Source: Armatimonadota bacterium (GTDB lineage: Bacteria > Armatimonadota > SYMT01). Taken from it: a stretch of 50,699 nt of DNA. The notes beneath the pieces are model-generated. The model was not told the DNA's origin. It searched no databases and saw only the letters and a list, made by a program, of their open reading frames with translations. The position numbers were made by a program, and so were the translations under genes. Shown here piece by piece: positions 3,419 through 49,852 of the stretch (its first letter is position 1; every line of letters starts with the position of its first letter). The stretch covers positions 1 to 50,699 of the forward strand of contig JBKBRF010000048.1 of NCBI GenBank assembly GCA_046292385.1. The letters are read 5' to 3'.

Positions 3419-3526
3419 AAGCGGTGGCAAGCCACCGCACTCCACAGACTGCACCGGGGCAGTCTCCCTTTCGACGAGAGGGAATCTCTTCCGGGCTAGC
3501 CTGTGGAGTGCGAATGCTTGCTTTCG
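3419..3526. repeat. Inverted pair of REP-like palindromes (REPIN-like)
   Basis: AAGCGGTGGCAAGCCACCGCACTCCACAG (3419-3447) and an inverted degenerate copy starting CTGTGGAGTGCG (3501-3526); 12-bp perfect complement. Confidence 0.6.
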
Positions 3527-3757
3527 CGCCCCGCGTCAGCGGGGCCACCGGAGAAGCTTCCCGATTTCGCCAACAGTATCCTTGCGCGGCCTCCCTAACG
3601 AAGCCGAACCTGTCAGGCCCAGGCGATACAGGCGCACGTTCCTCACCCGGGCGACTGCACCTCCGATAGAAGGGCCGCGCGAGCGCGTCACTCCGGCAGT
3701 ACCGAATCGCCAATACCGCTTCACGAAGCCCTGACAGGACCCGGGAAGGCGGTGACT

Positions 3758-7204: not shown

Positions 7205-7397
7205 AGGGGAGCGAAGCGTGGGGCGCGCCGCAAGGGCGCGGCTGCCGGTATCTTCCGCATTATACCTCGGCGTCGAGCGGCAGCATGGAGCGCGGTGGCC
7301 CGCGCGCGGTCTCGTGGCGGAGGCGGAGCTTTTCTCACGAAGGTATTCTTAAGTGATGGTCAGCGCCCCCGCGAGAGCAGGCCGCTCAGGGAGAAAC

Positions 7398-12349: not shown

Positions 12350-12940
12350 GTGCCATTCGAACTTCCTCTTCCGGAGCTCCTGCGCGAGGAGACCCGCCGC
12401 GAGCACGACCGCCTCGAGCAGCGGATCGACTTGCTGCGTCCGGACTTCTCCCCGGCGGAGTACCGCGCGCTGCTCGCCCGATTCCTGGGTTACTACGAGC
12501 CGCTGGAGCGGGGCCTGGCGGCGCACCCCTGGGCGGAGCTGGGGCACCCCTTGCAGCCGGGTGAGAGGCCCGCGCTCCTGGCCCGGGACCTCGGGGTGCT
12601 GGGGCTCTCTCGTGAAGCGATCTCCGCCCTTCCGCGGTGCGGCGCCGTTCCGGACGTGGGCGATCTCTCCCGCGCGGCGGGAGCGCTCTACGTGCTGGAG
12701 GGCGCCGCGCTCGGCGGGCAGGTCGTGGCGCGCCATCTCCGGCGTACGCCGCTCCTTCGGGAGCTCCCGGCGGCTTTCTTCGGAAGTGACGGCGCGGACG
12801 TGGGTGCCCGCTGGCGCAAGTTCCGAGCTTTGCTGGAGGAGCTGGGTCGGTCGCGCCTGGAACGAGGGATGGTGATCGACGGCGCCCGCGCCACGTTCCG
12901 CCGCCTGGACGACTGGCTCGCCGAAAGGAGCCCCGCTTGA
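12350..12940 (+). CDS. bphO: Biliverdin-producing heme oxygenase (BphO-type)
   Basis: LREETRREHDRLE (proximal His), GALYVLEGAALGGQVV, AFFG, RWRKF; GTG start inferred; stop overlaps the bphP start. Confidence 0.88.
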   Translation: MPFELPLPELLREETRREHDRLEQRIDLLRPDFSPAEYRALLARFLGYYEPLERGLAAHPWAELGHPLQPGERPALLARDLGVLGLSREAISALPRCGAVPDVGDLSRAAGALYVLEGAALGGQVVARHLRRTPLLRELPAAFFGSDGADVGARWRKFRALLEELGRSRLERGMVIDGARATFRRLDDWLAERSPA

Positions 12941-15213
12941 GCGCTTCTCCCGAGATCCGACCGGCCGCTGACCTGCGGGACTGCGACCGCGAGCCGATCC
13001 ACGTCCCCGGCTCGATCCAGCCGCACGGCGCGCTCCTGGTGCTCCGGGAGCCGGACCTGCAGGTGCTGCAGGTGAGCGCTAATGCCGGCGCGCTGCTCGG
13101 TCGCGGCCCGGAAGAGCTGCTCGACCGGCCGTTCGACCTCCTCCGTCCGGACGACCTGGCCAGCCTGAGACAGCTTCACGAACAGTCGTCGCTGGCGGAA
13201 GTGAACCCCCTGCGGGTGGAGACGGCGGGAGGAGATTGTTTCGACGCGATCGTCCACCGGACTGCGGGAGGCCTGGTGCTGGAGCTTGAGCCGGCGCCGG
13301 AGCCGGCCGCGCCCGGCCTCATGGGCTTCTACCACCGGGTCCGCCGCGCGGCAGCGCGCCTGGAGAGCGCCCCGGACATCCGCGCGCTCTGCGACGCGGC
13401 CGCGGAGGAGGTCCGGCGCCTGACCGGCTTCGACCGGGTGATGATCTACCGCTTCGACCCGGAGTGGAACGGCGAGGTGGTGGCGGAGGATCGCGCCGGA
13501 GACGTGGAGTCGTTCCTTGGCCTGCATTACCCGGCCACCGATATCCCGCCGCAGGCCCGGCAGCTCTATACCGTGAACTGGCTGCGCCTGATCGCGGACG
13601 TGCAGTACGCGCCCACGCCGCTGGTGCCGGCGCTCAATCCGGCCACCGGCGCACCGCTCGACATGAGCTTCTCCGTGCTCCGGAGCGTCTCGCCCGTGCA
13701 CGTGGAGTACCTGCAGAACATGCGGGTCGGCTCGTCGATGTCGGTCTCGCTGCTCCACGAAGGGCGGCTCTGGGGCCTCATCGCGCTGCACCATCGCTCG
13801 GCGCGGTTCGTTCCGTACGAGGTGCGGCAGGCGTGTGAGTTCCTGGGTCAGGTGCTCTCGCTGCATCTTTCGCTCAAGGAAGAGCAGCGCGACTATCAGC
13901 AGCGGGTCCAGCTCGCCGAGATCCGCACCGGGCTGCGCGAGCGGCTGGAGCAGGAGAGCGACATGGCGCAGGCGCTGAGCCAGGGCGCCGAGTTACTGCT
14001 GCGGACGGTAAACGGGGCCGGCGCCGCGGTCCGGCTGTTCGGTCAGGTCACCTGCGTCGGCGAGACACCGGAGGCCGCGGTGGTCGCCCGCCTGATGCAC
14101 TGGCTGGATGCCGAGAGGCCCGCGGAGACGTTCCACACCGACTCGCTCTCCGCTGTGCTTCCGGAGGCGGCGGAGTGGGTGGAGCACGCCAGCGGCATCC
14201 TGACGATCTCGCTCTCCGACCGCGACCGGATCGTCTGGTTCCGGCCGGAGGTGGTGCGGACCGTCAACTGGGGCGGCGATCCGAACCACCCGGTCCTGCC
14301 GAAAGGCGCGCGCATCCACCCGCGGCGCTCCTTCGAGCTCTGGAAGCAGCGGGTGCGGCGCAAGTCGCTGCCGTGGACCGACGAGGAGCTGCGCTCCGCC
14401 GCCGCGCTGCGCGGGGACCTGGTCGACATCTTCGTGCGGAGGGCGGAGCAGCGCTCCCGGGCGCGATTGGAAGCGCTCAACCAGGAGCTCGCCCGCAGCA
14501 ACGCCGAGCTCGACTCGTTCGCTTACGTCGCCTCGCACGACCTGAAAGAGCCGCTCCGGGGCATCCGCAACTACACCAAGTTCGTCCTGGAAGACTTCGG
14601 CGACTCCCTTCCGGAAGAGGGGCAGGAGCGGCTCGGGACGGTGGTCCGCCTCTCCGACCGCATGGAAGAGCTGATGGACTCGCTCCTCCATTACTCCCGG
14701 GTGGGACGGGGTCACCTGGCGATCCAGGACTGCGATCTCAACCTGGTGGTGGCCGGAGTGCTGGAGCTGCTCGAGCCGAGGATCGAGGAGAAGGGGGCGG
14801 AGGTCGCCGTCGAGGGGCCGCTGCCGGTGATCCGCTGCGACGTGAGTCGCATTTCGGAGGTATTCGCCAACCTGATCGGGAACGCCATCAAGTACAACGA
14901 GAGCGATAGGCCCCGCGTGGAGATCGGATACGAAGGGGATGCGCAGCGCCAGGAAGAGCTGGTCTTCTACGTCCGGGACAACGGCATCGGCATCCCGGAG
15001 CGGCACCACGAAGGCATCTTCGAGTTCTTCCGGCGACTCCACACGCGCGACCGCTTCGGCGGCGGGACCGGTGCCGGCCTGTCGATCGTCAAACGCATCG
15101 TAGAGCGTCACGGCGGCCGGGTCTGGGTGGAGAGCGCGCCCGGCGAGGGCAGCGCGTTCCGGTTCGCCCTGCCGGTGGTGCCCGCTTCCGCCGCCTTTCC
15201 GGCCGCCGGTTAG
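12937..15213 (+). CDS. bphP: Bacteriophytochrome histidine kinase (PAS-GAF-PHY-HK)
   Basis: CDREPIHVPGSIQPHG, FDRVMIYRF, PATDIPPQAR, RSVSPVHVEYL, WGGDP...PRRSF, SHDLKEPLR, HATPase boxes. Confidence 0.96.
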   Translation: MSASPEIRPAADLRDCDREPIHVPGSIQPHGALLVLREPDLQVLQVSANAGALLGRGPEELLDRPFDLLRPDDLASLRQLHEQSSLAEVNPLRVETAGGDCFDAIVHRTAGGLVLELEPAPEPAAPGLMGFYHRVRRAAARLESAPDIRALCDAAAEEVRRLTGFDRVMIYRFDPEWNGEVVAEDRAGDVESFLGLHYPATDIPPQARQLYTVNWLRLIADVQYAPTPLVPALNPATGAPLDMSFSVLRSVSPVHVEYLQNMRVGSSMSVSLLHEGRLWGLIALHHRSARFVPYEVRQACEFLGQVLSLHLSLKEEQRDYQQRVQLAEIRTGLRERLEQESDMAQALSQGAELLLRTVNGAGAAVRLFGQVTCVGETPEAAVVARLMHWLDAERPAETFHTDSLSAVLPEAAEWVEHASGILTISLSDRDRIVWFRPEVVRTVNWGGDPNHPVLPKGARIHPRRSFELWKQRVRRKSLPWTDEELRSAAALRGDLVDIFVRRAEQRSRARLEALNQELARSNAELDSFAYVASHDLKEPLRGIRNYTKFVLEDFGDSLPEEGQERLGTVVRLSDRMEELMDSLLHYSRVGRGHLAIQDCDLNLVVAGVLELLEPRIEEKGAEVAVEGPLPVIRCDVSRISEVFANLIGNAIKYNESDRPRVEIGYEGDAQRQEELVFYVRDNGIGIPERHHEGIFEFFRRLHTRDRFGGGTGAGLSIVKRIVERHGGRVWVESAPGEGSAFRFALPVVPASAAFPAAG

Positions 15214-15289
15214 TCCTTGTCTACAGCTTCTTCCCCACGCCGCACCGGGCCGAGCGGGGCGACGTCCAGTCCTCTCCTGAGGAGTCCGC

Positions 15290-16945
15290 ATGTCGGTTGA
15301 GCGGCTCAAAACCCTGATCGTAGACGACAGCCCGGAAGACCGGGAGACGGTGCGCCGCTACCTGAAGCAGGCGGACGGCTACGAGTACGACTGCCTGGAA
15401 GCGGAGACGGGCGAAGAGGCGATCGAGGTCTTCCGCCGCGAGCGGCCGGACGTGCTGCTGATCGACTTCCGCCTGCCCGACATGAACGGGCTGGAGCTGA
15501 TCGCCGAGATCATCGACCTGTCGGACAGCGTGCTGCTGCCGGTGGTGATGCTGACCGGCACCGGCAATGAGCAGATCGCCGTGGAAGCGATGAAACGGGG
15601 TGCCCAGGACTACCTGGCGAAGGGCACGACCACCCCGGAGAGCCTGCGGCGGGCGATCCACTACACGGTGGAGAAGATCCGCATCCTCCGCATGCTGGAA
15701 GATCAGCGGCTGGAGCTGGAGCTGGCGAACCGGGAGCTGGCACGGAGCAACCGCGAGCTGGCGCAGGCGGATCAGCGGAAGGACGCCTTCCTGGCGATAC
15801 TCGCGCACGAGCTGCGCAACCCGCTCGCCGCCACCCGCAACGCCCTGGAGGTGCTGCGCCTCGCCCGCTCGGACGAGGCGCGCTACCAGCAGGCGCTGGT
15901 GGTGCTGGAGCGGCAGATCCGCCATTAGAGCCGCCTGCTGGACGACCTCCTCGACGTCTCCCGCATCACCCAGAACAAGATGCTCTTGCGCCCGGAGCGG
16001 GCCGACCTGACCGAGATCATCCGCCTCACGCTGGAGGACCAGCAGCCCGCGCTCGACCGGGGCGGACTGCTGGTGAGCGTCTCGCTGCCGGAAGCGCCGG
16101 TCGGCCTCGTGGGCGACCCGGTCCGCCTCTCTCAGGCGGTCGGGAACCTGATCCACAACGCCATCAAGTTCACCGATCCGGGTGGTCGGATCTTCGTTTC
16201 CCTGAGCGTAGAGCCGGCGGGAAGCGATGGGGCTTCCCGGGCGGTGCTCGCGGTGCGAGACAACGGGATCGGCATTGCGCCCGACCTCCTGCCGCGCCTG
16301 TTCGACACCTTCTCCCAGGCGGACCGCAGCCTCGACCGCAGCGGCGGCGGGCTGGGGCTGGGGCTCTCCCTGGTGAAGGGTCTCACCGAGCTGCACGGCG
16401 GCACCGTAGAGGTGGAGAGCGCGGGCCTGGGGCAGGGGAGTGAGTTCCGGATCTGCCTCCCCGTGCCGCGGGAAGCGCCGGGGCCGGCAGAGACCCCCGT
16501 CCGTCCGCCGGAACGAGTCGATGCCTCACCTCCGCGCTCCGGCGCGCCGGCCGCGCGGGCGCTGCGGGTGCTCGTAGTGGAAGACAACCGGGATGCCGCG
16601 GACACCCTCCAGGACCTGCTGGAGATCCACGGCCACGAGGTGCACGTCGCCTTTACCGGCGCCGCCGGGGTAACCGTGGCGCAGGAGCTCCGGCCGGACG
16701 TGATTCTCTGCGACGTGGGGCTCCCCGGCAAGGACGGCTACGAAGTGGCACGGGAGCTGCGCGCGAACCCGATCACCGCGTCCGTGCGCCTGATCGCGGT
16801 CTCCGGCTACGGCCAGTTGGAAGACCGCGTCCGCGCCCGTGAGGCGGGGTTCGACCTCCACCTTACGAAACCGGTCGATCCGGCCGAGCTGGTGGAGCTG
16901 ATCCGCCGCGGCGGAGAGCCGCCGGAAGCTGCCGCGCACCCCTGA
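15290..16945 (+). pseudogene. REC-HisKA-HATPase-REC hybrid kinase interrupted by one in-frame TAG (15926-15928)
   Basis: ORFs 15290..15928 and 15980..16945 share a frame; reading through gives RQIRH*SRLLDDLLDVSRI versus RQVRHQSRMVDDLLDVSRI in the 7398 kinase. Confidence 0.85.
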
Positions 16946-33304: not shown

Positions 33305-33565
33305 CGCTTCTCCCCTTGCTTCGACCGGCGGCACGCAGCGGCCCCTCTATCCCACGACATAGACGTAAGGCGCCGCCAATCGTTTCGCGGCGGGCACCCC
33401 GGAGAATGGGTCCGCTGCGGCGCGGCCCGCTGGGCACCGCTAGAATCTGTTCCGAGTAGTCTCGCCGCTATCCCGGAGGCGCGTTCGGGCGCTCCGGATC
33501 GCCCGGAAGTCAGAAGAAGGGTCCGGCGGCGGCCGCGGCGATTGACCGGGGTCCGGAGGTTGGAC

Positions 33566-33593
33566 GGTTTCCAAGCGCAACCGGAGAGGGTAG
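33566..33593 (+). promoter_or_regulatory. SigB/SigF-like promoter upstream of prkA
   Basis: GGTTT-N17-GGGTAG. Confidence 0.45.
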
Positions 33594-33751
33594 ACAGAAG
33601 GGCCGGCCTCGCACCCCGTGACCCGGCGCCGACTTCCACCCGCGAACTGCTCTCGCGGACCGCTCGAAGGAAGCGCCTGCTCGGCGGGAGGGTGCCGGTG
33701 CTCTCCGGCGCAAGCGGTGAGGGTCAACGGATACGTGAAAGGGGCAACGGA

Positions 33752-35692
33752 ATGGACCTGATGCAGCGGCTTAGCGAATTCCGCTCTGAAGAGGAGGCGC
33801 TGCGCTGGGAGGGAACCTTCGCCGAATACCTGGAGAAGGTGAAGGAGAATCCTCGGATCGCGCGCCTGGCGCACGGCCGCATCTTCGACATGATGATGGC
33901 CGCCGGCGTGGACCGGCCGGAGGACCAGGAGTATTCCCGCTACCACTTCTTCGACGACGAGTTGTTCGGGCTGGAGAAGCCGCTCCAGCAGCTGGTGGAG
34001 TACTTCAACAGCGCCGCCCAGCGGCTGGAGGTGCGCAAGCGCATCCTGCTCCTGATGGGGCCGGTCGGCGGCGGCAAGTCGACCATAGTGAGCATGCTCA
34101 AGCGGGGCCTGGAGGCGCACACCCGCAAGCCGGAAGGCGCCGTCTACTCGATCAAGGGCTGCCCGATGCACGAGGAGCCGCTCCACTTGATCCCGGACGT
34201 GCTCCGGACGGAGTTCGAGCGGGAGACCGGCGTCTACGTGGAGGGCGATCTCTGCCCCCACTGCCGCTTCTACTTCGAGCGGGACGGCTCCGACGTGCCG
34301 AACCATCCGTTCGGGAGCGACTTCCAGCGGCTCTCGTTCGAGAGCGTGCCGGTGCAGCGGATCGTCTTCAGCGAGAAGCACCGCGTCGGGATCGGCACCT
34401 TCACGCCGAGCGACCCGAAGAGCCAGGACATCTCCGAGCTGGTGGGCGGCATCGACCTCTCCACCATCGGCGAGGTGGGGGTCGAGTCCGACCCGCGCGC
34501 CTACCGCTTCGACGGAGAGCTGAACATCGCCAACCGGGGTCTCATGGAATTCATCGAGATGCTGAAGTGCGATGAGAAGTTCCTGTATGTCCTGCTCACG
34601 CTCTCCCAGGAGCAGAACATCAAGACCGGCCGGTTCTCCATGATCTATGCGGACGAGGTGGTCGTCTCGCACACCAACGAGAACGAGTACGCCGCGTTCG
34701 TCGGCAACCGTAAGAGCGAGGCGCTCCAGGACCGCATCATCCTGGTGAAGGTACCGTACAACCTGCGCGTCAGCGAGGAGATGCGGATCTACGACAAGCT
34801 GCTGCGCCAGAGCAGCGCGCTGGCGAACGTCCACATCGCGCCGCACACGCTGCGCGTCTCCAGCCTCTTCGCCATCCTGACGCGCCTGGAGCCGCCGAAG
34901 AAGGCCGGCATGAGCCTGATGAAGAAGCTCCGGCTCTACGACGGCCAGGACGTGGAAGGCTTCACCACCAAGGACGTGCGGGAGCTGCAGGAAGAGACCG
35001 ACCGCGAGGGCATGGACGGCATCAGCCCGCGCTACGTGATCAACCAGCTCTCCCGCGCGCTGATCCGCGAGGGGGTGACCTGCATCAACCCGATCGCGGC
35101 GCTCCGCGTGCTGCGGGACGGCCTGGACCAGCACACCTCCATCACCAAGGCGGACCGGGAACGCTACCTCAACCTGATCGACGAGGCGCGCCGCGAGTAC
35201 GACGACATGGCGAAGCTGGAGGTGCAGCGGGCGTTCGTCTACAGCTTCGAAGAGAGCGCGCGGACGCTGCTGAACAACTTCCTGGACAACGTGGAGGCGT
35301 TCTGCAACCGCCAGAAGGTGCGGGATCCGTTCACGGACGAGGAGGTCGACCCGGACGAGAAGCTGATGCGCTCCATCGAAGAGCAGATCGGGATCACCGA
35401 GAACGCCAAGAAGACGTTCCGCGAAGAGATCCTGATCCGCATGGCGGCGATGGCGCGCAAGGGGCAGAAGTTCGAGTACACCAGCCACGAGCGGCTGCGG
35501 GAGGCGATTGAGAAGAAGCTCTTCGCGGACCTGCGGGACGTGGTGAAGATCACCACCTCCACCAAGACTCCCGACGCGGAGCAGCTTCGGAAGATCAACG
35601 AAGTGGTCGACCGCCTGATCGAAGAGCAAGGGTACTGCCACGTCTGCGCGAATGAGCTGCTGAAGTACGTAGGGACGTTGCTGAACCGCTAG
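33752..35692 (+). CDS. prkA: PrkA/YeaG family AAA+ / serine kinase
   Basis: WEGTFAEYL, Walker A GPVGGGKST, CPMHEEPL, SQDISELVG, ANRGLMEFIEMLK, GMDGISPR; start at MDLMQRL. Confidence 0.95.
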   Translation: MDLMQRLSEFRSEEEALRWEGTFAEYLEKVKENPRIARLAHGRIFDMMMAAGVDRPEDQEYSRYHFFDDELFGLEKPLQQLVEYFNSAAQRLEVRKRILLLMGPVGGGKSTIVSMLKRGLEAHTRKPEGAVYSIKGCPMHEEPLHLIPDVLRTEFERETGVYVEGDLCPHCRFYFERDGSDVPNHPFGSDFQRLSFESVPVQRIVFSEKHRVGIGTFTPSDPKSQDISELVGGIDLSTIGEVGVESDPRAYRFDGELNIANRGLMEFIEMLKCDEKFLYVLLTLSQEQNIKTGRFSMIYADEVVVSHTNENEYAAFVGNRKSEALQDRIILVKVPYNLRVSEEMRIYDKLLRQSSALANVHIAPHTLRVSSLFAILTRLEPPKKAGMSLMKKLRLYDGQDVEGFTTKDVRELQEETDREGMDGISPRYVINQLSRALIREGVTCINPIAALRVLRDGLDQHTSITKADRERYLNLIDEARREYDDMAKLEVQRAFVYSFEESARTLLNNFLDNVEAFCNRQKVRDPFTDEEVDPDEKLMRSIEEQIGITENAKKTFREEILIRMAAMARKGQKFEYTSHERLREAIEKKLFADLRDVVKITTSTKTPDAEQLRKINEVVDRLIEEQGYCHVCANELLKYVGTLLNR

Positions 35693-35904
35693 ACGCCGGA
35701 GAAGTGGGAATAAGGGAGTACGGCGAGACCTTACTCCCTCTCCTCTCCCCCGGGAAGAAAGCGAGCATGCCACTGATAGCTCCCCTCTCCTCACAGGAGA
35801 GGGGACGGGGGTGGTCCCGCGGCGAGTGGCTCTTGAGTAGGAGCAAGAGTAAGAGAACGAGTAGGAGTAGGAGAGGGACCGGGATCGAAGGGAGCGGATG
35901 GACC
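35693..35904. repeat. Repeat mosaic in the prkA-yhbH spacer
   Basis: Hairpin at 35776-35814 resembles 31802-31841; 35845-35873 is the exact reverse complement of 25598-25626. Confidence 0.7.
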
Positions 35905-37068
35905 GTGGCGATAGTATCCGTCAGCCAGGCCGACTGGTCGCTGCACCGCAAGGGGTTCATCGACCAGGACCGGCACGAGCAAAAGATCAAGGAGGCAATC
36001 AAGAAGAACCTCCATGAGATCGTGAGCCGGGAGGACATCATCCTCTCGGACGGCAAGCGCGTGGTCAAGGTCCCGATCCGCTCCCTGGAGCAGTACAAGT
36101 TCCGCTTCGACCACAACAAAGGCGAGCGTGTGGGCCAGGGGCAGGGCGGGACGAAGGTCGGCGACGTCGTCGCGCGCGATCCGGACGACGGGCAGGGCCA
36201 GGGGGCCGGCAAGGGCAAGGGCCAGGCCGGCGACCAGGCGGGAGTCGACTACTTCGAGGCGGAGGTCGACATCGACGAGCTTTCCGCGCTGATCTTCGAG
36301 GACCTGGGGCTGCCGAACCTGGAGGAGAAACGGAGCCGCCAGCTCGAGGTGGAGAGCGTCGCGTTCAAAGACATCCGCCGCGCCGGGATCATGGCGAACC
36401 TCGACAAGCGCCGGACCGTGATGGAGAACATCAAGCGCAACGCGATGCGCGGGGACGCCCGCTTCGGGAACATCCGGAGCGAGGACCTGCGGTTCAAGAC
36501 GTGGGACCGCGAGGTGCGGCACGAGTCGAACGCGGTGGTGATCGCGATGATGGACGTCTCCGGCTCCATGGGCGAGTTCGAGAAGTACATCGCGCGGAGC
36601 TTCTATTTCTGGATGGTCCGCTTCCTCCGCACGAAGTACGAGAACGTGGAGATCGTCTTCATCTCCCACCACACCGAGGCGAAGATCGTCTCCGAAGAGG
36701 AGTTCTTCACCAAGGGAGAGAGCGGCGGCACCCGCGTCTCCAGTGCCTACTCCCTGGCGCTGGAGACGATCCAGGAACGGTACCGCCCGGAAGAGTGGAA
36801 CATCTACCCGTTCCACTTCTCCGACGGCGACAACATGTTCAGCGACAACCGGACCTGCGTGGAGCTGGTCCACCGCCTGCTGGAGGTCTGCAATCTCTTC
36901 GGGTACGGGCAGATCAAGCAGGGCTGGTATCCCGCCGGCACGCTGATGAGCGTCTACAGCCAGGAGATCGACAACGATAAGTTCGTGGCGGTCACCATCG
37001 AGGACAAGGAAGACGTCTACCCGGCGCTCCGCAAGTTCTTCGCCCTGCGGAGCCCGATCCCGGCCTGA
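35905..37068 (+). CDS. yhbH: YhbH/YeaH (DUF444) VWA-like protein
   Basis: DWSLHRKG..DQ.RH, MMDVSGSM, GESGGT, FHFSDGDN; GTG start. Confidence 0.93.
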   Translation: MAIVSVSQADWSLHRKGFIDQDRHEQKIKEAIKKNLHEIVSREDIILSDGKRVVKVPIRSLEQYKFRFDHNKGERVGQGQGGTKVGDVVARDPDDGQGQGAGKGKGQAGDQAGVDYFEAEVDIDELSALIFEDLGLPNLEEKRSRQLEVESVAFKDIRRAGIMANLDKRRTVMENIKRNAMRGDARFGNIRSEDLRFKTWDREVRHESNAVVIAMMDVSGSMGEFEKYIARSFYFWMVRFLRTKYENVEIVFISHHTEAKIVSEEEFFTKGESGGTRVSSAYSLALETIQERYRPEEWNIYPFHFSDGDNMFSDNRTCVELVHRLLEVCNLFGYGQIKQGWYPAGTLMSVYSQEIDNDKFVAVTIEDKEDVYPALRKFFALRSPIPA

Positions 37069-37142
37069 GGTGCCGCCGGTCTCCGTCCTCACGCACCGGC
37101 GCGCAGCCCGCTTTCCGGGAGATGCGGAACTGAACTTTGACC

Positions 37143-38597
37143 ATGAGCAGTGATCTCGATGCCCTCCGCAACGCCGTCCAGGAGATCTGGGAGGCGAGCG
37201 AGTCGACCGGTCTCGACCCGTTCCCGATCCACTTCGACATCGTCCCGGCCAGCGTGATGTACGAGATCGGCGCGTACGGTCTTCCGGGGCGCTTCTCCCA
37301 CTGGACCCACGGGAAAGCATTCCACCAGATGAAGACCATGTATGACTATGGTCTCTCCAAGATCTACGAGCTGATCATCAACACCAACCCGGCGCAGGCG
37401 TTCCTGATGGAAGCGAACAGCCTGATCCAGAACAAGCTGGTGATCGCGCACGTCATCGGGCACTCCGACTTCTTCAAGCGCAACGCCTACTTCCAGCACA
37501 CCGACCGCCAGATGGCGGAGACCGCCGGCGTGACCGCGGAGCGGATCCGCGCCTACGAGCGGGAGCACGGCGAGAAGGTGGTGGAGGAGTTCCTCGACGC
37601 GGTGCTCTCCATCCAGGAGCACATCGACCCGCACCTCCGCATGCGCCGCCGCGACGGCAGCGCCCCCGCCGAGCCGCCCCGGCGCCGCACCACCCCGTAC
37701 GACGACCTCTGGCGCATGCGGGAGAAGGAAGAAGACGCGCCCGCCGCCCCACGGCCCCGCATCCCGGAAGAGCCGGAGAAAGACCTGCTGCTCTTCCTGC
37801 TGGAGTACGCGCCGGAGCTGCAAGACTGGCAGCGGGACGTGCTGAACATCGTCCGCAACGAGATGATCTACTTCCTGCCGCAGATGCAGACCAAGACCAT
37901 GAACGAGGGCTGGGCCTCCTACTGGCACAGCCGCATCTTGCGGGAAATGGACCTTACGGCGGAGGAGCACCTGGAGTTCACGCGCCTGCACGCGGGCGTG
38001 CTCTCCCCTTCGCCGCGGGGCACCTCGATCAATCCGTACTACGTCGGGTTCAAGATCTTCGAGGATATCGAGCGGCGCTGGAACGGGGACCTCACCGAAG
38101 AGGAGCGGCGGGAGTACCGGGAGACGAACTTCGGCAAGGAATGGCCGCACGCCGGCAAGGGCCGCGAGAAGATGTTCGAAGTGCGGGAGATGGAGAACGA
38201 CGTCTCCTTCCTGCGCAACTACCTCACCCGCAAGCTGGTGGATGAGCTCGACATGTACATCTACCGCAAGGAAGGCAACGAGTGGGTGGTGGTGGAGAAG
38301 GACTGGCGGAAGATCCGGGACTCGCTGGTGGAGAGCATGACCAACTTCGGCTTCCCGTACCTCGTGGTACAGGACGGCGACTACCGCCGCGCGCGGGAGC
38401 TGCTGCTTCACCACAGCTTCGACGGCCGCGAGCTCGACCCCAACTACGGGTTCAAGACGCTCCGCTACCTCTACCAGCTCTGGGGCCGGCCGGTCCACCT
38501 GGAGACGACGGTCGATGACCAGCCGGTGCTCTGGACCTACGACGGGGAGCAGGAGCTGGTAAACCAGAAGCCGGCTCAGGGTGAGCAAGCGCCATAG
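37143..38597 (+). CDS. spoVR: SpoVR/YcgB family protein
   Basis: GLPGRFSHWTHGK, IYELIIN, AHVIGHSDFF, TKTMNEGWASYWH, NPYYVG, LWGRPVHLET. Confidence 0.95.
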   Translation: MSSDLDALRNAVQEIWEASESTGLDPFPIHFDIVPASVMYEIGAYGLPGRFSHWTHGKAFHQMKTMYDYGLSKIYELIINTNPAQAFLMEANSLIQNKLVIAHVIGHSDFFKRNAYFQHTDRQMAETAGVTAERIRAYEREHGEKVVEEFLDAVLSIQEHIDPHLRMRRRDGSAPAEPPRRRTTPYDDLWRMREKEEDAPAAPRPRIPEEPEKDLLLFLLEYAPELQDWQRDVLNIVRNEMIYFLPQMQTKTMNEGWASYWHSRILREMDLTAEEHLEFTRLHAGVLSPSPRGTSINPYYVGFKIFEDIERRWNGDLTEEERREYRETNFGKEWPHAGKGREKMFEVREMENDVSFLRNYLTRKLVDELDMYIYRKEGNEWVVVEKDWRKIRDSLVESMTNFGFPYLVVQDGDYRRARELLLHHSFDGRELDPNYGFKTLRYLYQLWGRPVHLETTVDDQPVLWTYDGEQELVNQKPAQGEQAP

Positions 38598-43495: not shown

Positions 43496-43587
43496 TCCCG
43501 ACAGGAAGCCCCGCTCCCGGAAGCGAACAGGGATGCGGGTCGCCGGCCCCTTTGCCTGCGCGCGGCCGTTGGCGTGGAGAGCCGCAG

Positions 43588-46245
43588 ATGGCTTCCGGGA
43601 GCCCGGGAAGCTACACGTTCCTGTTTACCGACCTGGAGGGCAGCACCCGGCTCTGGGAAGAATTCCCGGAGCGCGCGCGGTCGCTGCTGCTGCGTCACGA
43701 AGAGCTCCTGCGAGTCGCGTTCGACCGGCACGGAGGACGCGTCTTCAATACCGCGGGCGACGCGCTCCACGCGGTCTTCTCCCTTCCCACGGAGGCGCTC
43801 CGGGCCGCCGCGGAGGCCCAGGCGGCGCTGCGGGCGGAGCCGTGGGGAGAGGGCGGGCCGCTCCGGGTCCGCATCGGCATCCACGCGGGTCCGGCGGAGC
43901 GGCGCGGCGAAGACTTCCTCGGGGTCGCCCTCCACCGGGCCGCGCGGGTGCTCCAGGCCGCACACGGGGGGCAGACGCTCGTCTCCAGCGCGGTGGAGGC
44001 GCTCGCCCGCGACACCTTGCCGCGGGAGCTCGATCTGATCGACCTCGGCACGCACCGGCTCCGCGACCTGGTAGCGGTGGAGCGGCTCTACCAGCTCCTC
44101 CACCCGGAGGTGACGGAGCGCTTCCCCGCGCCGCGGACGCTCAATGCCACCGCCAACAACATCCCCGCGCAAGCGAACCGCTTTATCGGCCGCGAGCGGG
44201 AGCTGAGCGAGCTGCGGGAGCTGCTCCGGGAAACCCGCGCGCTCACGCTCACCGGACCCGGCGGCTGCGGCAAGACCCGGCTGATGCTTCAGCTCGCGGC
44301 GGAGCTGACGGAGGAGTACCCGGACGGCGTCTGGCTGGTCGACCTCTCCGCCGTCACCCAGGGTGAGCTGGTGCCGCAGACCGCCTGTCACGCGCTGGGC
44401 CTGCGGGAAGAGGCGGCTCGCAGCCCGCTGGAGACGCTGCGCAACCACGTCTCCGGCCGCCGGCTCCTGGTCCTGCTCGACAACTGCGAGCACCTGGTCG
44501 ACGCCTGCGCCCGCATGGTCGCCGACCTCCTCGCCGCCGCGCCCGGGATCCGCGTCCTGGCTACCTCACGCGAGGGGTTGAACGTCCCGGGCGAGGCGCT
44601 CTGGCCGCTCCAGCCGCTGGAGCTGCCGCCCGCCTCCGGCAGCCGCGGCCGCGCGAGCGATCCGGCGGAGCTGCTCTCCTGGGACTCGGTCGCCCTCTTC
44701 GTGGAGCGGGCTCGCGCGGCGAAGCCCGACTTCGCGCTCGACGATCGCTCCGCGGCCGCGGTGGCGCAGATCTGCCGCCGCCTCGACGGACTGCCACTGG
44801 CCCTGGAGCTCGCCGCGGTCAAGCTCCGCGTCCTCCCGCCCGAGCAGCTCTCCCGGCGCCTCGATGACCGGCTGGCGATCATCGCGGGAGGGAGCCGGAC
44901 CGCGCCGCCGAGGCAGCAGACCCTGGACGGGCTGATCGCGTGGAGCTATGGACTTCTCGCGCCGCGCGAGCGCCGCCTGTTCCGCCTGCTCTCCGTCTTC
45001 GGCGGCGGGTGGACGCTGGAAGCGGCGGAGGGAGTCGCCGGCCGGCTGCGGGGGCTGCGGCAGCAGGTGCAGCCGGAGGAGGTGCTGGAGCTGCTGACCC
45101 GACTGGTGGAGCAGTCGCTCGTCGTGGCGGAGCTCGACACGGGAGACGCGCGTTACCGCATGCTGGAGACGATCCGGCACTACGCGCGAGAGAGACTGGA
45201 GGAGTGCGGGGAGCTGGAGGCGTGCCGGGACGCTCACGCGGCCTACTTCGTGGAGCTGGCGGAGCTGGCGGAGCCCTCCCTGCGCGGGGTGGACCAGGCG
45301 CGCTGGCTCGACTGCCTGGACGCCGAGCACGACAACTTCCGCGCGGCGCTCACCTGGAGTCTCCAGCAGCAGGACGCCTCAAGCGCGCTGCGCCTGACCG
45401 GGGCGCTCTGGTTCTTCTGGTACACCCGCGGGCACCTGCGGGAGGGCCGGGACTGGTGCAGCCGCGCTCTCCAGGCGGAGACCGCCGCTCCGGCAGAGGT
45501 GGTGGCCAAGGCCTGCAGCGCCGCCGGCAACCTCGCCTGGGCCCAGGGCGACAGCGAAGTGGCGCTCGCCCTGCACCAGCGCAGCCTCGCCCTGCGCCGG
45601 GAGATCGGGGACCGCCGCGGCATCGCCGGCTCCCTCAACAACCTCGGCCTGGTCAGCCGGGAGCGCGGGGACCCGACCGCCGCCCGCGCGTACTTGCAGG
45701 AGAGTCTCGGCCTCTGGCGGGAGCTGGGCGAGCAGCGTCCGGCCGCGACGGCGCTGAGTAACCTGGGCGCGCTCGAGTACGACGCGGGAGAGCTGGCGGA
45801 AGCGCAGGAGCGGTACGAAGAGAGTCTGCGCCTGCTCCGCCGCCACGGAGAGCGCAGCAGCATCGCGGTCACCCTGCACAACCTCGGGGAGATCGCCCGG
45901 CGCCGCGGCGAGCTGGTCCGCGCGGAGGAGCTCTTTCGGGAAAGCCTGCAGCTCCGCGCCGACCTGCAGGACGTCCGCGGCACCCTTCGCGTGCTGCAGG
46001 AGCTGGCCGTGCTCCGGCTGGACCAGGGCCGGGCGACCGAGGCCGCGGAGCTCTTTGCCGCCGCCGCCGCCGCCCGGGAGGAATTGGGCGACGAGGGAGC
46101 CCCGGCGGAGCGCGAGGAGCGGGAGAAGGAGCTCGAGCGGCTCCGGGCGGCGCTGGCGCCGGCGGAGCTCTCGGCTGCCTGGGAGCGGGGACGGGCCACC
46201 ACTTGGCCGGACGCGGTCGCCCACCTGCTAACCGGCCCCACTTGA
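43588..46245 (+). CDS. Class III cyclase-like domain + STAND (NB-ARC-like) ATPase + TPR protein
   Basis: FTDLEGST, GDA, RIGIHAG; FIGRERE, GPGGCGKT, LLDNCEHL, LDGLPLALELAA; TPR repeats (SLNNLG, LSNLG, LHNLG). Confidence 0.92.
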   Translation: MASGSPGSYTFLFTDLEGSTRLWEEFPERARSLLLRHEELLRVAFDRHGGRVFNTAGDALHAVFSLPTEALRAAAEAQAALRAEPWGEGGPLRVRIGIHAGPAERRGEDFLGVALHRAARVLQAAHGGQTLVSSAVEALARDTLPRELDLIDLGTHRLRDLVAVERLYQLLHPEVTERFPAPRTLNATANNIPAQANRFIGRERELSELRELLRETRALTLTGPGGCGKTRLMLQLAAELTEEYPDGVWLVDLSAVTQGELVPQTACHALGLREEAARSPLETLRNHVSGRRLLVLLDNCEHLVDACARMVADLLAAAPGIRVLATSREGLNVPGEALWPLQPLELPPASGSRGRASDPAELLSWDSVALFVERARAAKPDFALDDRSAAAVAQICRRLDGLPLALELAAVKLRVLPPEQLSRRLDDRLAIIAGGSRTAPPRQQTLDGLIAWSYGLLAPRERRLFRLLSVFGGGWTLEAAEGVAGRLRGLRQQVQPEEVLELLTRLVEQSLVVAELDTGDARYRMLETIRHYARERLEECGELEACRDAHAAYFVELAELAEPSLRGVDQARWLDCLDAEHDNFRAALTWSLQQQDASSALRLTGALWFFWYTRGHLREGRDWCSRALQAETAAPAEVVAKACSAAGNLAWAQGDSEVALALHQRSLALRREIGDRRGIAGSLNNLGLVSRERGDPTAARAYLQESLGLWRELGEQRPAATALSNLGALEYDAGELAEAQERYEESLRLLRRHGERSSIAVTLHNLGEIARRRGELVRAEELFRESLQLRADLQDVRGTLRVLQELAVLRLDQGRATEAAELFAAAAAAREELGDEGAPAEREEREKELERLRAALAPAELSAAWERGRATTWPDAVAHLLTGPT

Positions 46246-46270
46246 CGCCGCGCGGCAACAGCGCCACAAT
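46242..46270 (+). promoter_or_regulatory. Sigma70-type promoter of the MPE(F/Y)IPET cassette
   Basis: TTGACG-N17-CACAAT. Confidence 0.6.
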
Positions 46271-46317
46271 GTTCTTGACTGTAGATCTTGCAAGCGAGCG
46301 CCCATCTGGAGGCCTCT

Positions 46318-46740
46318 ATGCCGGAGTTCATCCCCGAGACGATCCAGCCGGTGCCGCTGCCGCCCGCCCCCCCGCCTGAAGGCCAGGGTTGGGGACCGGT
46401 CGGCCTCGAGATCGCCACCAAGCCGGTGGGCCGCGGAGACTTCGTGGTCCTCTACATCGTGATGGACGACGTCCCTCCGGCTGCCAAGCCCGTCACCCTC
46501 AAGATCCACGTGGTCAAATCGTCCGACGGCACCGTGCTGACGCAGCCGAATGACGTCCGAACCTACCTCGAAGATTACCCCCAGGGGGCTATCCCGGTTC
46601 GGAAGAAGATCCATCTCGTGGTGCTGCAGGTGAAGGAGAACGCACCGGAAAGCGCCACGGTCATCGTGAACGCCCACGCTGCCAAGCAGTCCGGCGGCGG
46701 CAATGGTGGCGCCTCCGGCAGCTTCCAGATCAAGGTGTAG
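46318..46740 (+). CDS. Hypothetical protein 1 (140 aa): MPEFIPET leader, Pro linker, beta-rich domain
   Basis: GGAGG RBS before ATG 46318; shares its N-terminus with the next two ORFs. Confidence 0.8.
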   Translation: MPEFIPETIQPVPLPPAPPPEGQGWGPVGLEIATKPVGRGDFVVLYIVMDDVPPAAKPVTLKIHVVKSSDGTVLTQPNDVRTYLEDYPQGAIPVRKKIHLVVLQVKENAPESATVIVNAHAAKQSGGGNGGASGSFQIKV

Positions 46741-46766
46741 CCGCCCGCCAGTTATTGGAGACCGAC

Positions 46767-46919
46767 ATGCCCGAGTACATCCCGGAAACGCCTACCCCTA
46801 CCCCGACACCCCCTCCGCCTCCGCCTCCGCCGACCGAGCCGACGGAGCCGACCGAGCCGACGTCGCCCACCAGCCCCAGCGGCACCAGCGGCGGCACGGC
46901 GCCGTCGACGGGCGGATAG
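46767..46919 (+). CDS. Small protein 2 (50 aa): MPEYIPET leader with Pro/Thr/Ser/Gly tail
   Basis: GGAG RBS; MPEYIPETPTPTPTPPPPPPPPTEPTEPTEPTSPTSPSGTSGGTAPSTGG*; absent from the ORF track. Confidence 0.75.
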   Translation: MPEYIPETPTPTPTPPPPPPPPTEPTEPTEPTSPTSPSGTSGGTAPSTGG

Positions 46920-47026
46920 AGGCGAGAGGCTGCAGCCGGACCGCGCGCCAGTAGATGGAGCGCCGGACGGCGCCCCGCGCTGCCGGCCGCGGACCGCATC
47001 CAGGTGCAGCGGTAAGGAGCTACACG

Positions 47027-47428
47027 ATGCCCGAGTTCATTCCCGAGACCGTGACTCCTGTGCCGGTGCCCCCGGGTTCCGACCCAGGTCCCGCCACCGA
47101 GCCCCAGCAGACGCGTCATTGCGACCACGTCGACCCGACGAAACCGCCTCCGCCGGCGAAGGCCGGCAACCTCGTCTACGTCTGCGTCCAGTTGACGGAA
47201 CGCGCGGGCGCGGATGTGGAGCTCGAGATGGAGACCGGAGGAACGGGCAATCAGTATGTCGCCACCCGCCGCAATCCGAGCTTCAAAGAGGGGGAGCAGG
47301 TGGGCGCAGGCCTCGTCGTCCTGAAGAACCGGGTCGACGACTCCCGGCTCACGATCACCGTGTTCGGTAAGGACGAGCGTGGCCACCGCCTGCCGGGCAA
47401 GACCGCGACGATCGAAATCGAGAAGTAA
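47027..47428 (+). CDS. Hypothetical protein 3 (133 aa): MPEFIPET leader, Pro linker, beta-rich domain
   Basis: AAGGAG RBS before ATG 47027; same leader motif. Confidence 0.8.
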   Translation: MPEFIPETVTPVPVPPGSDPGPATEPQQTRHCDHVDPTKPPPPAKAGNLVYVCVQLTERAGADVELEMETGGTGNQYVATRRNPSFKEGEQVGAGLVVLKNRVDDSRLTITVFGKDERGHRLPGKTATIEIEK

Positions 47429-47477
47429 GCGGCGACCTCCGCAGCGGAGAGGGAAACCGCCGCGGAGGCGGAACTGC

Positions 47478-47515
47478 ACGGGGGAGCGACAACTCGGTCG
47501 CTCCCCCGTTTTGTT
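47478..47515 (+). terminator. Rho-independent terminator
   Basis: 13-bp stem ACGGGGGAGCGAC / GTCGCTCCCCCGT followed by TTTGTT. Confidence 0.8.
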
Positions 47516-49852
47516 ATGGCGACAGACGAACGAGCTCACGTCTTCGGGATCCGGCACCACGGGCCGGGCTCCGCACGGAGCCTGCTGCGGGCCCTGGAAG
47601 TGCTGCAGCCGGACCTGGTGCTGGTAGAAGGGCCGCCCGACGCCGCGCCGGTCCTCTCCCTGGCGGCGCACCCGGAGATGCGACCGCCGGTGTCGCTGCT
47701 CGTCTACGCGGCCGACACGCCGCGGCAGGCGGTCCACTACCCGTTCGCGGAGCTTTCCCCGGAGTGGCAGGCGCTCCGCTTCGCGCTCGCCCGCGGGATC
47801 GAGGTGCGGTTCATCGATCTCCCGCAGGCGCATCGCCTGGCGCTGGAGATGCCGCCCGCTCCCCCGGAAGCCGGCCCAACCAATGCAGAGGCTCCCCCAG
47901 AGTCCGCAGTGGACGAGCCGCCGGCGGTCGAGGAGGCGGAGGAGATCCGGGACGACGTGCTCGATCCCGCGCGGGCGGTGCGCCGGGACCCGATCGGGTG
48001 GCTGGCACGGGCGGCCGGCTACTCCGACGGCGAGCGCTGGTGGGACCTGGCCGTGGAGCAGCGGCGGGACGGTGAGGAGCTGTTCGCCGCGGTGCGAGAG
48101 GGGATGACCGCCCTCCGCGAGGCAGTAGAGGCCGACTACCCGCCGTCTACCCCCGAGGAGCAGGAGCACGCGCTGATGGAGGCGCGGCGGGAAGCGTGGA
48201 TGCGCCAGTCGCTGCGCGCGGCGCTGCGGGAGGGGTTTCAGCGGATCGCCGTCGTCTGCGGCGCCTGGCACGTGCCGGCGCTCCAGCCGGGCCTGCCGGT
48301 GAAGAGCGACGCAGAGCTGCTGAAGGGGCTCCCGAAGGTGAAGGTGGCCGCCACCTGGGTGCCCTGGACCCACGGCCGCCTCTGCTACGCCAGCGGCTAC
48401 GGCGCCGGGATCGAGTCGCCCGGATGGTACCTCCACCTCTGGCGCCATCCGGAGCGGACCGCCGTCCGCTGGCTCACCCACGTGGCGCGGCTGCTGCGCG
48501 GGGAAGACCTGGACGCCTCCAGCGCCCACGTGATCGAGGCGGTGCGGCTCGCAGAGACGCTGGCGGCGCTGCGGGGACGGCCGAACGCCGGCCTGGCGGA
48601 GCTGAACGAGGCGGCGCAGGCGGTGCTCTGCTTCGGCGACCTGCTCCCGATGCAGCTCGTCCACCGCAAGCTGATCGTCGGCGAGACGCTGGGCGAGGTG
48701 CCGGAGGAGACCCCTTCCGTCCCGCTGCAGCAGGACCTGCAGCGGGAGCAGCGGCGGCTGCGGCTGAAGCCGGAGGCGGGGGAGCGGACGCTCGACCTCG
48801 ACCTGCGGCGGGAGCTCGACCTCGGCCGCAGCCACCTCCTGCACCGCCTGGAGCTGCTCGGCGTGCCGTGGGGCCGGCCGGAGCGCGCCTACGGCAAGAG
48901 CGGCACCTTCCACGAGCTGTGGCGGCTGCGCTGGGATCCGGACCTCTCCGTGGCCCTGATCGAGGCGGGGGTCTGGGGCAACACGCTGGCCGACGCCGCC
49001 TCCGCCCGGGCGCGCGACGCGGCCGACCGCGCCGCCGACCTCGCCGGGCTCACTTCGCTCCTCGACCGCGCGCTCCTGGCGGAGCTGCCGGAGGCGGTGA
49101 CTTACCTGATGGAGCGGATCCGGGAGCGGTCGGCGGTCGGCGCGGACACCGCCCAGCTCATGAGCGCGCTGCCGCCGCTGGCCCGAGTCCTGCGCTACGG
49201 CAGCGCCCGCCGCACCGACGCGGAAGCGGTGCGGGAGGTGGTAGACGGGCTGGTAGTGCGGATCTGCATCGGCCTGCCGGCTGCCTGCGCCTCTCTGAAC
49301 GACGAGGCGGCGGGCGAGATGCTCCAGCGCCTGGCGGCGGTCCACGAGAGCCTCTCGATCCTCGATCGCCCGGAGCACCTGGAGCCGTGGCACGAGGCGC
49401 TGGCGCGTCTCGCCTCGCAGCAGGGTATCCACGGCCTGCTCGCCGGCCGCTGCTGCCGCCTGCTCCTCGATGCCGGCCGCTTCACCCGGGAAGAGGTGGC
49501 GCGCCGGCTGGGGCTGGGCCTCTCCACCGCGGTCGACCCGACCCAGGGCGCCGCCTGGGTGGAAGGGCTGCTCGCCGGGAGCGGACTGCTCCTGCTCCAC
49601 GACGAGGCGCTCTGGGAGGTGGTCGACTCCTGGGTCACCCGGCTCCGCGAAGACGCCTTCGTGCCGCTCCTGCCGCTGCTGCGCCGCACCTTCTCCACCT
49701 TCGACCCGGCGGAGCGCCGGCAGATCGGGGAGCGGGTCCGCAGCGGCGCCCGGCACCGACCGCGCGCCGGAGCCGCCGGTGTGGAGGAAGCGCGCGCGGA
49801 CCTGGTGCTGCCGATCGTCCGGCAGCTGCTGGGCCTGCCGCAGCCGGCGTAA
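47516..49852 (+). CDS. DUF5682 (YehM-like) family protein
   Basis: FGIRHHGPGSA, LVEGP, PFAELSPEWQA, REAWM, VVCGAWH, GYGAGI.SPGWY, LLRRTFSTF. Confidence 0.88.
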   Translation: MATDERAHVFGIRHHGPGSARSLLRALEVLQPDLVLVEGPPDAAPVLSLAAHPEMRPPVSLLVYAADTPRQAVHYPFAELSPEWQALRFALARGIEVRFIDLPQAHRLALEMPPAPPEAGPTNAEAPPESAVDEPPAVEEAEEIRDDVLDPARAVRRDPIGWLARAAGYSDGERWWDLAVEQRRDGEELFAAVREGMTALREAVEADYPPSTPEEQEHALMEARREAWMRQSLRAALREGFQRIAVVCGAWHVPALQPGLPVKSDAELLKGLPKVKVAATWVPWTHGRLCYASGYGAGIESPGWYLHLWRHPERTAVRWLTHVARLLRGEDLDASSAHVIEAVRLAETLAALRGRPNAGLAELNEAAQAVLCFGDLLPMQLVHRKLIVGETLGEVPEETPSVPLQQDLQREQRRLRLKPEAGERTLDLDLRRELDLGRSHLLHRLELLGVPWGRPERAYGKSGTFHELWRLRWDPDLSVALIEAGVWGNTLADAASARARDAADRAADLAGLTSLLDRALLAELPEAVTYLMERIRERSAVGADTAQLMSALPPLARVLRYGSARRTDAEAVREVVDGLVVRICIGLPAACASLNDEAAGEMLQRLAAVHESLSILDRPEHLEPWHEALARLASQQGIHGLLAGRCCRLLLDAGRFTREEVARRLGLGLSTAVDPTQGAAWVEGLLAGSGLLLLHDEALWEVVDSWVTRLREDAFVPLLPLLRRTFSTFDPAERRQIGERVRSGARHRPRAGAAGVEEARADLVLPIVRQLLGLPQPA

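Follow-up and report, generated by a model that had tools for sequence, protein, structure and literature searches.

Three small open reading frames (ORFs) in the window analyzed here (the whole 50,699-nucleotide stretch of contig JBKBRF010000048.1, from an uncultured Armatimonadota bacterium) open with almost the same eight amino acids: the ATG-led starts at positions 46318, 46767, and 47027 encode MPEFIPET (ORF1), MPEYIPET (ORF2), and MPEFIPET (ORF3), respectively. The question raised by this locus is what so short a shared N-terminus does, and whether it marks a wider system to which these genes belong. The evidence points to an orphan gene family restricted to one species-level lineage, in which the octapeptide may be a short motif for docking to a partner encoded nearby; we give this reading about an even chance.

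Selection on the Shared N-Terminal Octapeptide

Across codons 2–8 of the three copies there are six changes, five of them synonymous and the other a conservative exchange between Phe and Tyr (P = 0.0026). Counted per site, this amounts to five synonymous changes on 4.7 sites, compared with one non-synonymous change on 16.3 sites. A first-pass annotation of this DNA had stated that the three starts differ only synonymously apart from the F/Y position, and that selection acts on the peptide. Both statements are upheld by the synonymous excess in these codons, and by the similarity of the encoded N-terminal parts: those of ORF1 and ORF3 align with a score of 84 (compared with 36 ± 5.6 for shuffled sequences), a value reached by none of 2000 shuffles. 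The C-terminal parts of the same two proteins score 24, compared with 24.6 ± 4.4 when shuffled (z = −0.13), and any similarity between them is undetectable.

At the DNA level, likeness begins exactly at the ATG and extends for ∼47 nt (16 codons) at 62–77% identity, with the highest value (77%) for ORF1/ORF3. The earlier claim that the rest of the genes has diverged therefore stands for the C-terminal parts, but not for the codons that directly follow the octapeptide. Within these codons, the hydrophobic residues at positions 9, 12, and 14 are kept in ORF1 and ORF3; the corresponding residues of ORF2 are P, T, and T. Upstream of the starts the sequences are unlike, and outside both the octapeptide and a duplication relic described below, the likeness between the genes is at background level. 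Because the DNA outside the octapeptide is unlike, including that upstream of the starts, the comparison supports the peptide, and not the DNA, as the conserved entity; it likewise supports purifying selection as the force that holds the octapeptide.

Organization of the Cassette

The cassette and its two neighbors are laid out as follows, all on the forward (+) strand:

43552..46245, +, upstream neighbor gene, 897 aa: adenylate/guanylate cyclase domain, STAND NTPase, and TPR sensor (Pfam Guanylate_cyc, AAA_16/nSTAND1/NB-ARC, and TPR_12/TPR_10)
46242..46270, +, promoter-like element TTGACG-N17-CACAAT, 9 of 12 positions matching
46318..46740, +, ORF1, 140 aa: MPEFIPET, IQPVPLPP, a Pro-rich stretch, and a predicted all-beta domain
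46767..46919, +, ORF2, 50 aa: MPEYIPET and a Pro/Thr-rich tail, without a globular domain
46929..46977, +, 49-nt DUF5682 relic, corresponding to DUF5682 codons 29–45 (47602–47650)
47027..47428, +, ORF3, 133 aa: MPEFIPET, VTPVPVPP, a Pro-rich stretch, and a predicted immunoglobulin (Ig)-like beta-sandwich
47429..47509, +, structured 3′ region: an imperfect hairpin (47429–47477), then a 13-bp terminator-like hairpin (47478–47509)
47516..49852, +, downstream neighbor gene, DUF5682 protein, 778 aa (Pfam PF18934, E = 1e-285)

Each of the three starts is preceded by a Shine-Dalgarno (SD)-like site: GGAGG at 46308–46312, 5 nt before the ATG of ORF1; GGAG at 46757–46760, 6 nt before that of ORF2; and AAGGAG at 47014–47019, 7 nt before that of ORF3. 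The fraction of Pro among residues 1–45 is 0.24 in ORF1, 0.40 in ORF2, and 0.31 in ORF3. The first-pass description of three tandem ORFs, each with its own ribosome-binding site, an MPE(F/Y)IPET start, and a Pro-rich continuation, is thus confirmed in the sequence.

The promoter-like element, whose -35-like hexamer is overlapped by the stop codon of the upstream cyclase-STAND gene, is the sole such site within 45900–47900 (mean of 0.0 across 50 shuffles). At the other end of the cassette, the terminator-like hairpin comprises 13 bp (10 GC pairs) with a TTTTGTT tail, and the fold of 47429–47530 (−59 kcal/mol; z = −5.9) is equaled by none of 200 shuffles. Transcriptional read-through from the cassette into DUF5682 is possible, because the hairpin's T-tract is broken and DUF5682 begins only 7 nt past the hairpin (start codon at 47516), without an SD site of its own. 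The unit had been called self-contained; a promoter-like site and a hairpin are indeed present, but self-containment itself is unproven.

By simple charge and hydropathy checks, no signal-peptide-like N-terminus was found in ORF1–3 (net charge of −2 over residues 1–10), nor a hydrophobic h-region (no 19-residue window exceeds 1.1 on the Kyte-Doolittle scale). To the extent that such checks allow, this agrees with the reported absence of a signal for the general secretory (Sec) or twin-arginine translocation (Tat) pathway.

Coding Status of the Three ORFs

Several features suggest that the ORFs are genes. The GC content by codon position is 0.68/0.43/0.86 in ORF1 and 0.69/0.47/0.83 in ORF3. An index akin to the codon adaptation index (CAI), trained on long genes of the same genome, gives 0.65 for ORF1, 0.56 for ORF2, and 0.60 for ORF3, compared with 0.21–0.43 for alternative overlapping frames and with 0.73 and 0.77 for the neighbor genes. 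The GC content of the cassette (0.63–0.67, compared with 0.73–0.76 in the flanks) is of a kind often seen in young genes.

Near-identical cassette DNA is present in Logan contigs from soil and root metagenome runs of three studies, with a hot-spring run, the possible source of the contig, counted apart. In this comparison 40 of 154 differences were listed, so that the counts of differences given here are incomplete. Two contigs from one soil run (X2) derive from a strain that is ∼97% identical: a 656-nt contig spanning 46138–46793 (8 differences) and a 1019-nt contig spanning 46818–47833 (28 differences). From this coverage it follows that the X2 strain keeps the gene orders STAND-ORF1-ORF2 and ORF2-ORF3-DUF5682. 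Within ORF3, the 15 listed differences consist of 7 non-synonymous changes (299 sites) and 8 synonymous changes (100 sites), a ratio of non-synonymous to synonymous substitution (dN/dS) of ∼0.29 (P = 0.018 against neutrality, for the listed differences). The seven residue changes are identical to those in P0005, a protein 95% identical to ORF3 that was recovered from the protein collection. The 107-nt spacer between ORF2 and ORF3 has six listed differences in the same strain, and two runs have contigs with an in-frame 6-nt deletion at 46812, within the poly-Pro segment of ORF2. On these sequence features we take ORF1 and ORF3 to be real genes. ORF2, which the protein collection does not include among its called proteins, is probably translated, yet it is the weakest of the three.

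Origin by Tandem Duplication

The relic that separates ORF2 from ORF3 (46929–46977) matches its counterpart in the DUF5682 gene at 38 of 49 nt (78%), with a score of 21.5, compared with a mean of 10.1 (sd 1.46) and a maximum of 16 among 408 control windows. Because this fragment of DUF5682 sits between two of the tag-bearing ORFs, it is, to judge from the sequence, the footprint of a tandem segmental duplication that included one tag-bearing ORF as well as the 5′ portion of DUF5682. ORF2 is probably a truncated copy, and plausibly the older one. The relic further implies that the cassette grew in place, and that it has adjoined DUF5682 since before the duplication.

Distribution of the Motif and of the Genes

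In its own genome (7.04 Mb in 91 contigs, 98.45% complete), a six-frame search for PE[FYWLIVM][ILVM]PE returned 15 places, and the motif itself occurs solely in ORF1–3. The back-translated pattern, with at most one mismatch, has no match in 400 other genomes of the phylum. In a genome collection with one genome for each of 185,579 species, there are 22 DNA pattern matches, all single-copy, and none is a clustered small gene. By our own arithmetic, ∼13 matches would be expected there by chance at equal base frequencies; several of the 22 are mutual orthologs, and 21 lie inside unrelated frames or in short frames. Only one public match to the motif continues into a Pro/Glu-rich stretch, which is then followed by a hydrophobic segment. 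This match (positions 2001–2023 of L024, contig JAYTSU010000030.1 of a Saccharibacteria metagenome-assembled genome) is a single copy within a 444-codon frame that is open for 55 codons upstream, and it is probably a coincidence. The Joint Genome Institute (JGI) metagenomes hold 32 single DNA pattern matches, none at a Pro-rich small ORF; IMG/VR holds one, the continuation of which is unrelated; and there was no match in plasmids (searched with DNA) or in phages (searched with the ORF3 protein).

Searches at the protein level were similarly empty. A 40-residue profile of the N-termini of ORF1 and ORF3, run against 5.8 billion protein clusters, returned just the ORF1 and ORF3 clusters (2 of 1765 candidates), and a 22-column profile of the octapeptide region reached a best E of 0.029 among 60 relatives, in an Arg-rich frame that looks wrong. 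The exhaustive HMMER search was made with ORF3 only, and ORF1 was covered by word-seeded searches, which are weak evidence: among proteins of similar length, ORF1 found just itself (1 of 86 candidates), and none of 1889 candidates of greater length scored. ORF1 was also not found in 40 related genomes, where the one match (E = 0.006) is not credible. For ORF3, the exhaustive search of 1.84 billion representatives gave five proteins at E ≤ 0.001, one of which is P0005. The remaining four contain ankyrin or other repeats, match over short repeated stretches, and were judged spurious. Within the genome itself, a phmmer search of 73,223 six-frame ORFs for paralogs of the ORF1 and ORF3 domains returned the queries alone.

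As far as these sequence collections reach, the motif and the genes are private to one species-level lineage, and are carried by near-identical soil and root strains only. The first-pass annotation had supposed a tag of a wider, uncharacterized system, for which recurrence at the N-termini of clustered small genes would speak. No such recurrence was found; in the genome's own proteome and in public genomes, the motif belongs to these three ORFs alone, and what is matched otherwise is single and chance-like. Because the motif does not recur elsewhere, the octapeptide would not be the tag of a wider system, but at most a docking motif confined to one young gene family.

Family and Fold Assignment

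The earlier statement that no family can be recognized is borne out by every profile and sequence library searched. ORF1 and ORF2 match no family of Pfam-A or NCBIfam, and ORF3 has sub-threshold matches only (DUF5953 at 13 bits, cut-off 25; spIIAB at 12 bits, cut-off 135). The cassette proteins have no matches in PADLOC or PHROGs, and among Protein Data Bank (PDB) sequences ORF3 has none and ORF1 has one, at E = 8.6. The first residues of ORF1–3 are reminiscent of the start of Fpg/Nei DNA glycosylases (MPE-x-PE, with catalytic Pro2 and Glu3). This candidate was rejected: no Pfam match to the Fpg N-terminal, H2TH, or zinc-finger models was found in the three proteins at E ≤ 1, and they are too short for the DNA-binding domains.

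Structure models were built with AlphaFold2 (AF2), without a useful alignment. The ORF1 model is all-beta and lacks an N-terminal strand (predicted local distance difference test, pLDDT, of 56), and the ORF3 model has seven or eight strands (pLDDT 62; predicted template modeling score, pTM, 0.59). The corresponding ESM Atlas models have pTM values of 0.44 (ORF1) and 0.74 (ORF3). Foldseek returned no match at E ≤ 0.001 for the ORF3 model. With VIA, its best Z was 8.2 and many Ig-like domains were tied at Z 7–8, which is the usual background level. At most, the models point to a generic small Ig-like beta-sandwich for ORF3, and less surely for ORF1, an assignment that implies no function.

Neighboring Genes and Genomic Context

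In related genera, DUF5682 belongs to an operon of the order SWIM-DUF5691-AAA_5(MoxR-like)-DUF5682-VWA_CoxE, which was seen in five of six fetched loci (the sixth is a 3.1-kb fragment); all six of the family's other genomes have a match to DUF5682 itself, as do 9 of 40 relatives. In the genome studied here the operon's genes lie scattered: contig C5 (174680–178571) carries SWIM, DUF5691, and AAA_5, VWA is alone on contig C38 (193–1350), and DUF5682, detached from the operon, sits behind the cassette. Each of the dispersed parts is apparently intact (tblastn identities of 43–79%). The cassette was considered as an accessory component of this operon, and this was rejected, as no tag-bearing ORF accompanies DUF5682 in the five readable loci and ORF1 was not credibly matched in the 40 relatives. 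A literature search by the name DUF5682 found nothing, and the titles and opening lines of abstracts on yehM/yehL/MoxR apparently include none on function.

The cyclase-STAND-TPR architecture of the upstream gene is strongly expanded in relatives, with up to 20 matches per genome, compared with three in this genome (E ≤ 1e-30). Tandem ORFs with shared ends were sought in 29 stretches at its closest paralogs (9 loci and 20 fetched stretches, several of which cover the same genes); as a positive control for the scan of the 20 fetched stretches, all three pairs of our own cassette were recovered. The lone flagged pair, at L114 (G005:C10:45000-49700), consists of frames at 1384–1668 and 3220–3666 and looks like a wrong frame. 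These two frames, located downstream of a cyclase-STAND gene and 1.8 kb apart, share a MAGGPR... start, are Arg-rich, and appear to run over repeated DNA or paralogous genes. In four frames tried, including two upstream of the sensor, no Pfam family was found at E ≤ 0.1.

Elsewhere in the window, 12790–16945 carries a bacteriophytochrome histidine kinase (PAS_2-GAF-PHY-HisKA-HATPase), followed by an interrupted hybrid histidine kinase. The frame of the latter (15281–16945; receiver and HisKA, then HATPase and receiver) is broken by an in-frame TAG at 15926–15928, which falls within the HisKA helix (...LERQIRH*SRLLDDLLDVSRI) and may reflect a nonsense mutation, a pseudogene, or an error in sequencing. 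Another hybrid kinase, of the Cache/PAS type, is encoded at 7353–10751, and a complete PrkA/DUF444/SpoVR trio, a conserved stress or starvation module, at 33440–38597 on the + strand.

Proposed Role of the Octapeptide and Its Alternatives

In the favored reading, the cassette grew by tandem segmental duplication just upstream of the displaced DUF5682 gene, and its three genes would be translated from their own ribosome-binding sites. ORF1 and ORF3 share one build, in which the octapeptide is followed by the pattern hydrophobic-x-Pro-hydrophobic-Pro-hydrophobic-Pro-Pro, a Pro-rich stretch, and a predicted small Ig-like beta-sandwich; ORF2 retains the octapeptide and a Pro/Thr-rich tail alone. 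Because only the two domain-bearing copies retain the hydrophobic-Pro pattern, residues 9–16 would belong to that domain, and residues 1–8 would form an independent element. We infer this independence because the octapeptide is kept in the domain-less ORF2, where the hydrophobic pattern behind it is lost. Exposed at the extreme N-terminus, the octapeptide would act alone as a linear motif that is read by one common partner. With the motif absent from every other protein of the genome, a local partner would be most likely: the TPR sensor of the cyclase-STAND neighbor, the family's own beta-sandwich, or DUF5682.

TPR domains bind peptides, and the upstream cyclase-STAND-TPR protein is, by inference, a candidate receptor. 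In a more specific version of the docking proposal, the octapeptide would be the cognate ligand of this adjacent sensor, and the three proteins (two bearing different Ig-like "heads", the third consisting of the bare tag) would tune its cyclic-nucleotide output, as a cytoplasmic, non-secreted counterpart of receptor-propeptide cassettes; to this version we attach a low probability.

A number of observations weigh against a docking motif with a local partner. Neither neighbor has a conserved association with the cassette, to judge from related loci: in the five readable DUF5682 loci AAA_5 directly precedes and no tag-bearing ORF was found, and in the 29 stretches at the closest cyclase-STAND paralogs, no tandem ORFs that share their ends are credible. 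AF2 models residues 6–14 of ORF3 as a strand within the sandwich, a placement consistent with a structural role for some of the conserved stretch. Moreover, the structure models are of low to middling confidence, and the selection tests use very few sites, with six changes in the tag and 15 in ORF3.

The modeled strand is the starting point for an alternative in which the conserved stretch at the N-terminus supplies the first strand of the protein's own Ig-like sandwich, packing in cis or donated to a neighboring subunit, with the long Pro-rich loop as a joint. The products would then form homo- or hetero-oligomers, and ORF2 would be a strand-only cap or competitor. Alignments of the ORF3 model by VIA and to the Atlas are reported across residues 1–133 (which gives the first and last aligned residue only), the hydrophobic residues 9, 12, and 14 are missing precisely from the domain-less copy, and a motif private to the cassette suits a self-contained interaction. 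However, the most conserved residues, 1–5, fall outside the modeled strand at a pLDDT below 50–60, the ORF1 model has no such strand, six prolines in 16 residues make for a poor hydrogen-bonded strand, and ORF2 keeps the octapeptide without a domain to pack on. We consider this alternative unlikely. The shared start could instead have no function as a peptide, being left over from duplication or gene conversion, or constrained as a translation-initiation or 5′ RNA element. The relic documents the duplication history, the sample of tag sites is tiny, and likeness that starts exactly at the ATG is what a translation-start element would produce. Yet the synonymous sites of the tag are nearly saturated, compared with one non-synonymous change on 16.3 sites, which is the reverse of what recent conversion or RNA constraint predicts, and the DNA identity over 47 nt is merely 62–77%; an absence of peptide function is, in our estimate, decidedly unlikely. 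Phe and Tyr are destabilizing N-terminal residues in the bacterial N-end rule, so that the motif might also be a processing tag or conditional N-degron, in which a cut (e.g., after Glu3) exposes Phe or Tyr and gives the three proteins a common, controlled half-life. The F/Y site as the sole variable position, and the strictly N-terminal placement, would fit. No protease gene is linked to the cassette, though, and conservation reaches residues 5–8 and the Pro pattern, which a simple degron does not need, making this a slim prospect.

Two further explanations have little in their favor. The succession of tag, linker, and payload is like that of cargo peptides of protein compartments, and would suggest a tag for general sorting or targeting within a wider system, be it a secretion route, a microcompartment, or a nanocompartment. 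Such a tag is very improbable, given that the motif is found on three proteins alone and recurs in none of the collections searched, that bacterial microcompartment (BMC) shell (PF00936) and encapsulin (PF04454) genes were not found in the genome, and that a signal-peptide-like N-terminus is lacking. That the ORFs are chance open frames in a GC-rich spacer, and not genes, would accord with homologs confined to near-identical strains, with the GC difference from the flanks (0.63–0.67, compared with 0.73–0.76), and with the low complexity of ORF2 and its absence among called proteins. Against this stand the coding-like codon-position GC and codon usage, which the alternative frames do not share, SD sites at the proper distance from all three starts, a dN/dS of ∼0.29 in ORF3, five synonymous changes out of six in the tag, and an ORF2 indel that is in frame, so that chance frames are extremely improbable.

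Comparison With Known Systems

Among the closest parallels in arrangement are the RRNPP/RRNPPA cassettes of Bacillota and their phages, in which the gene for an intracellular TPR receptor directly precedes small genes that share a short peptide, as the gene for the candidate receptor does here, and in which the peptide genes are tandemly duplicated. The receptors of those systems are helix-turn-helix (HTH) or phosphatase proteins (the Rap/NprR/PlcR/PrgX/AimR lineage), whereas the candidate here has a cyclase-STAND-TPR architecture, for which the Pfam/NCBIfam profile scan lists no HTH or Rap family. RRNPP propeptides are exported and processed, whereas ORF1–3 have no export signal by the simple hydropathy check. 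Also unlike those propeptides, ORF1 and ORF3 carry a domain of 90–100 residues, and the shared peptide is N-terminal.

Cargo peptides of BMC encapsulation and of encapsulins resemble the present case in having a short terminal peptide, a flexible linker, a variable payload, and several proteins per locus. They are, however, shell-binding peptides in the form of amphipathic helices or C-terminal motifs, whereas the present tag is acidic and contains Pro. BMC shell PF00936 had no matches in the 98.45%-complete genome (the control was positive in E. coli and Synechococcus), and neither did encapsulin PF04454, searched with the family 1 model only (control positive in three genomes). In donor-strand exchange (chaperone-usher pilins), and in the IxI tail of small heat-shock proteins, a terminal segment on a flexible arm fills the groove of another subunit. 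The likeness to these would lie in a predicted Ig-like or crystallin-like sandwich combined with a short terminal segment. Unlike in chaperone-usher systems, there is no Sec-signal-like N-terminus, and the neighbors at the locus are the cyclase-STAND and DUF5682 genes, and not a chaperone and usher; the alpha-crystallin (HSP20) Pfam family has no match in the cassette proteins, and the segment is Pro-rich.

Taxonomically restricted tandem families share with the cassette the lack of homologs beyond one species-level lineage, a GC content and codon adaptation lower than those of neighboring genes, a duplication relic, and a truncated copy. What sets the cassette apart from the usual orphan family is that an eight-residue N-terminal motif is strongly constrained, whereas the remainder has diverged beyond recognition. 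On its sequence, the cassette is most aptly classed as an orphan family, taxonomically restricted and with an N-terminal motif under selection. By analogy, it would work most like a receptor-plus-peptide or tag-plus-payload arrangement, as a member of no known family.

Implications

The main value of these findings at present is a negative one: the motif cannot be regarded as a general signal for targeting, and the genes are confined to a single uncultured lineage. Should the tag prove to act in docking, the cassette would illustrate, in compact natural form, how eight residues can wire a newborn gene family to its partner. It might then also give the first ligand for one of the cyclase-STAND-TPR sensors of the Armatimonadota, a very large and unstudied family.

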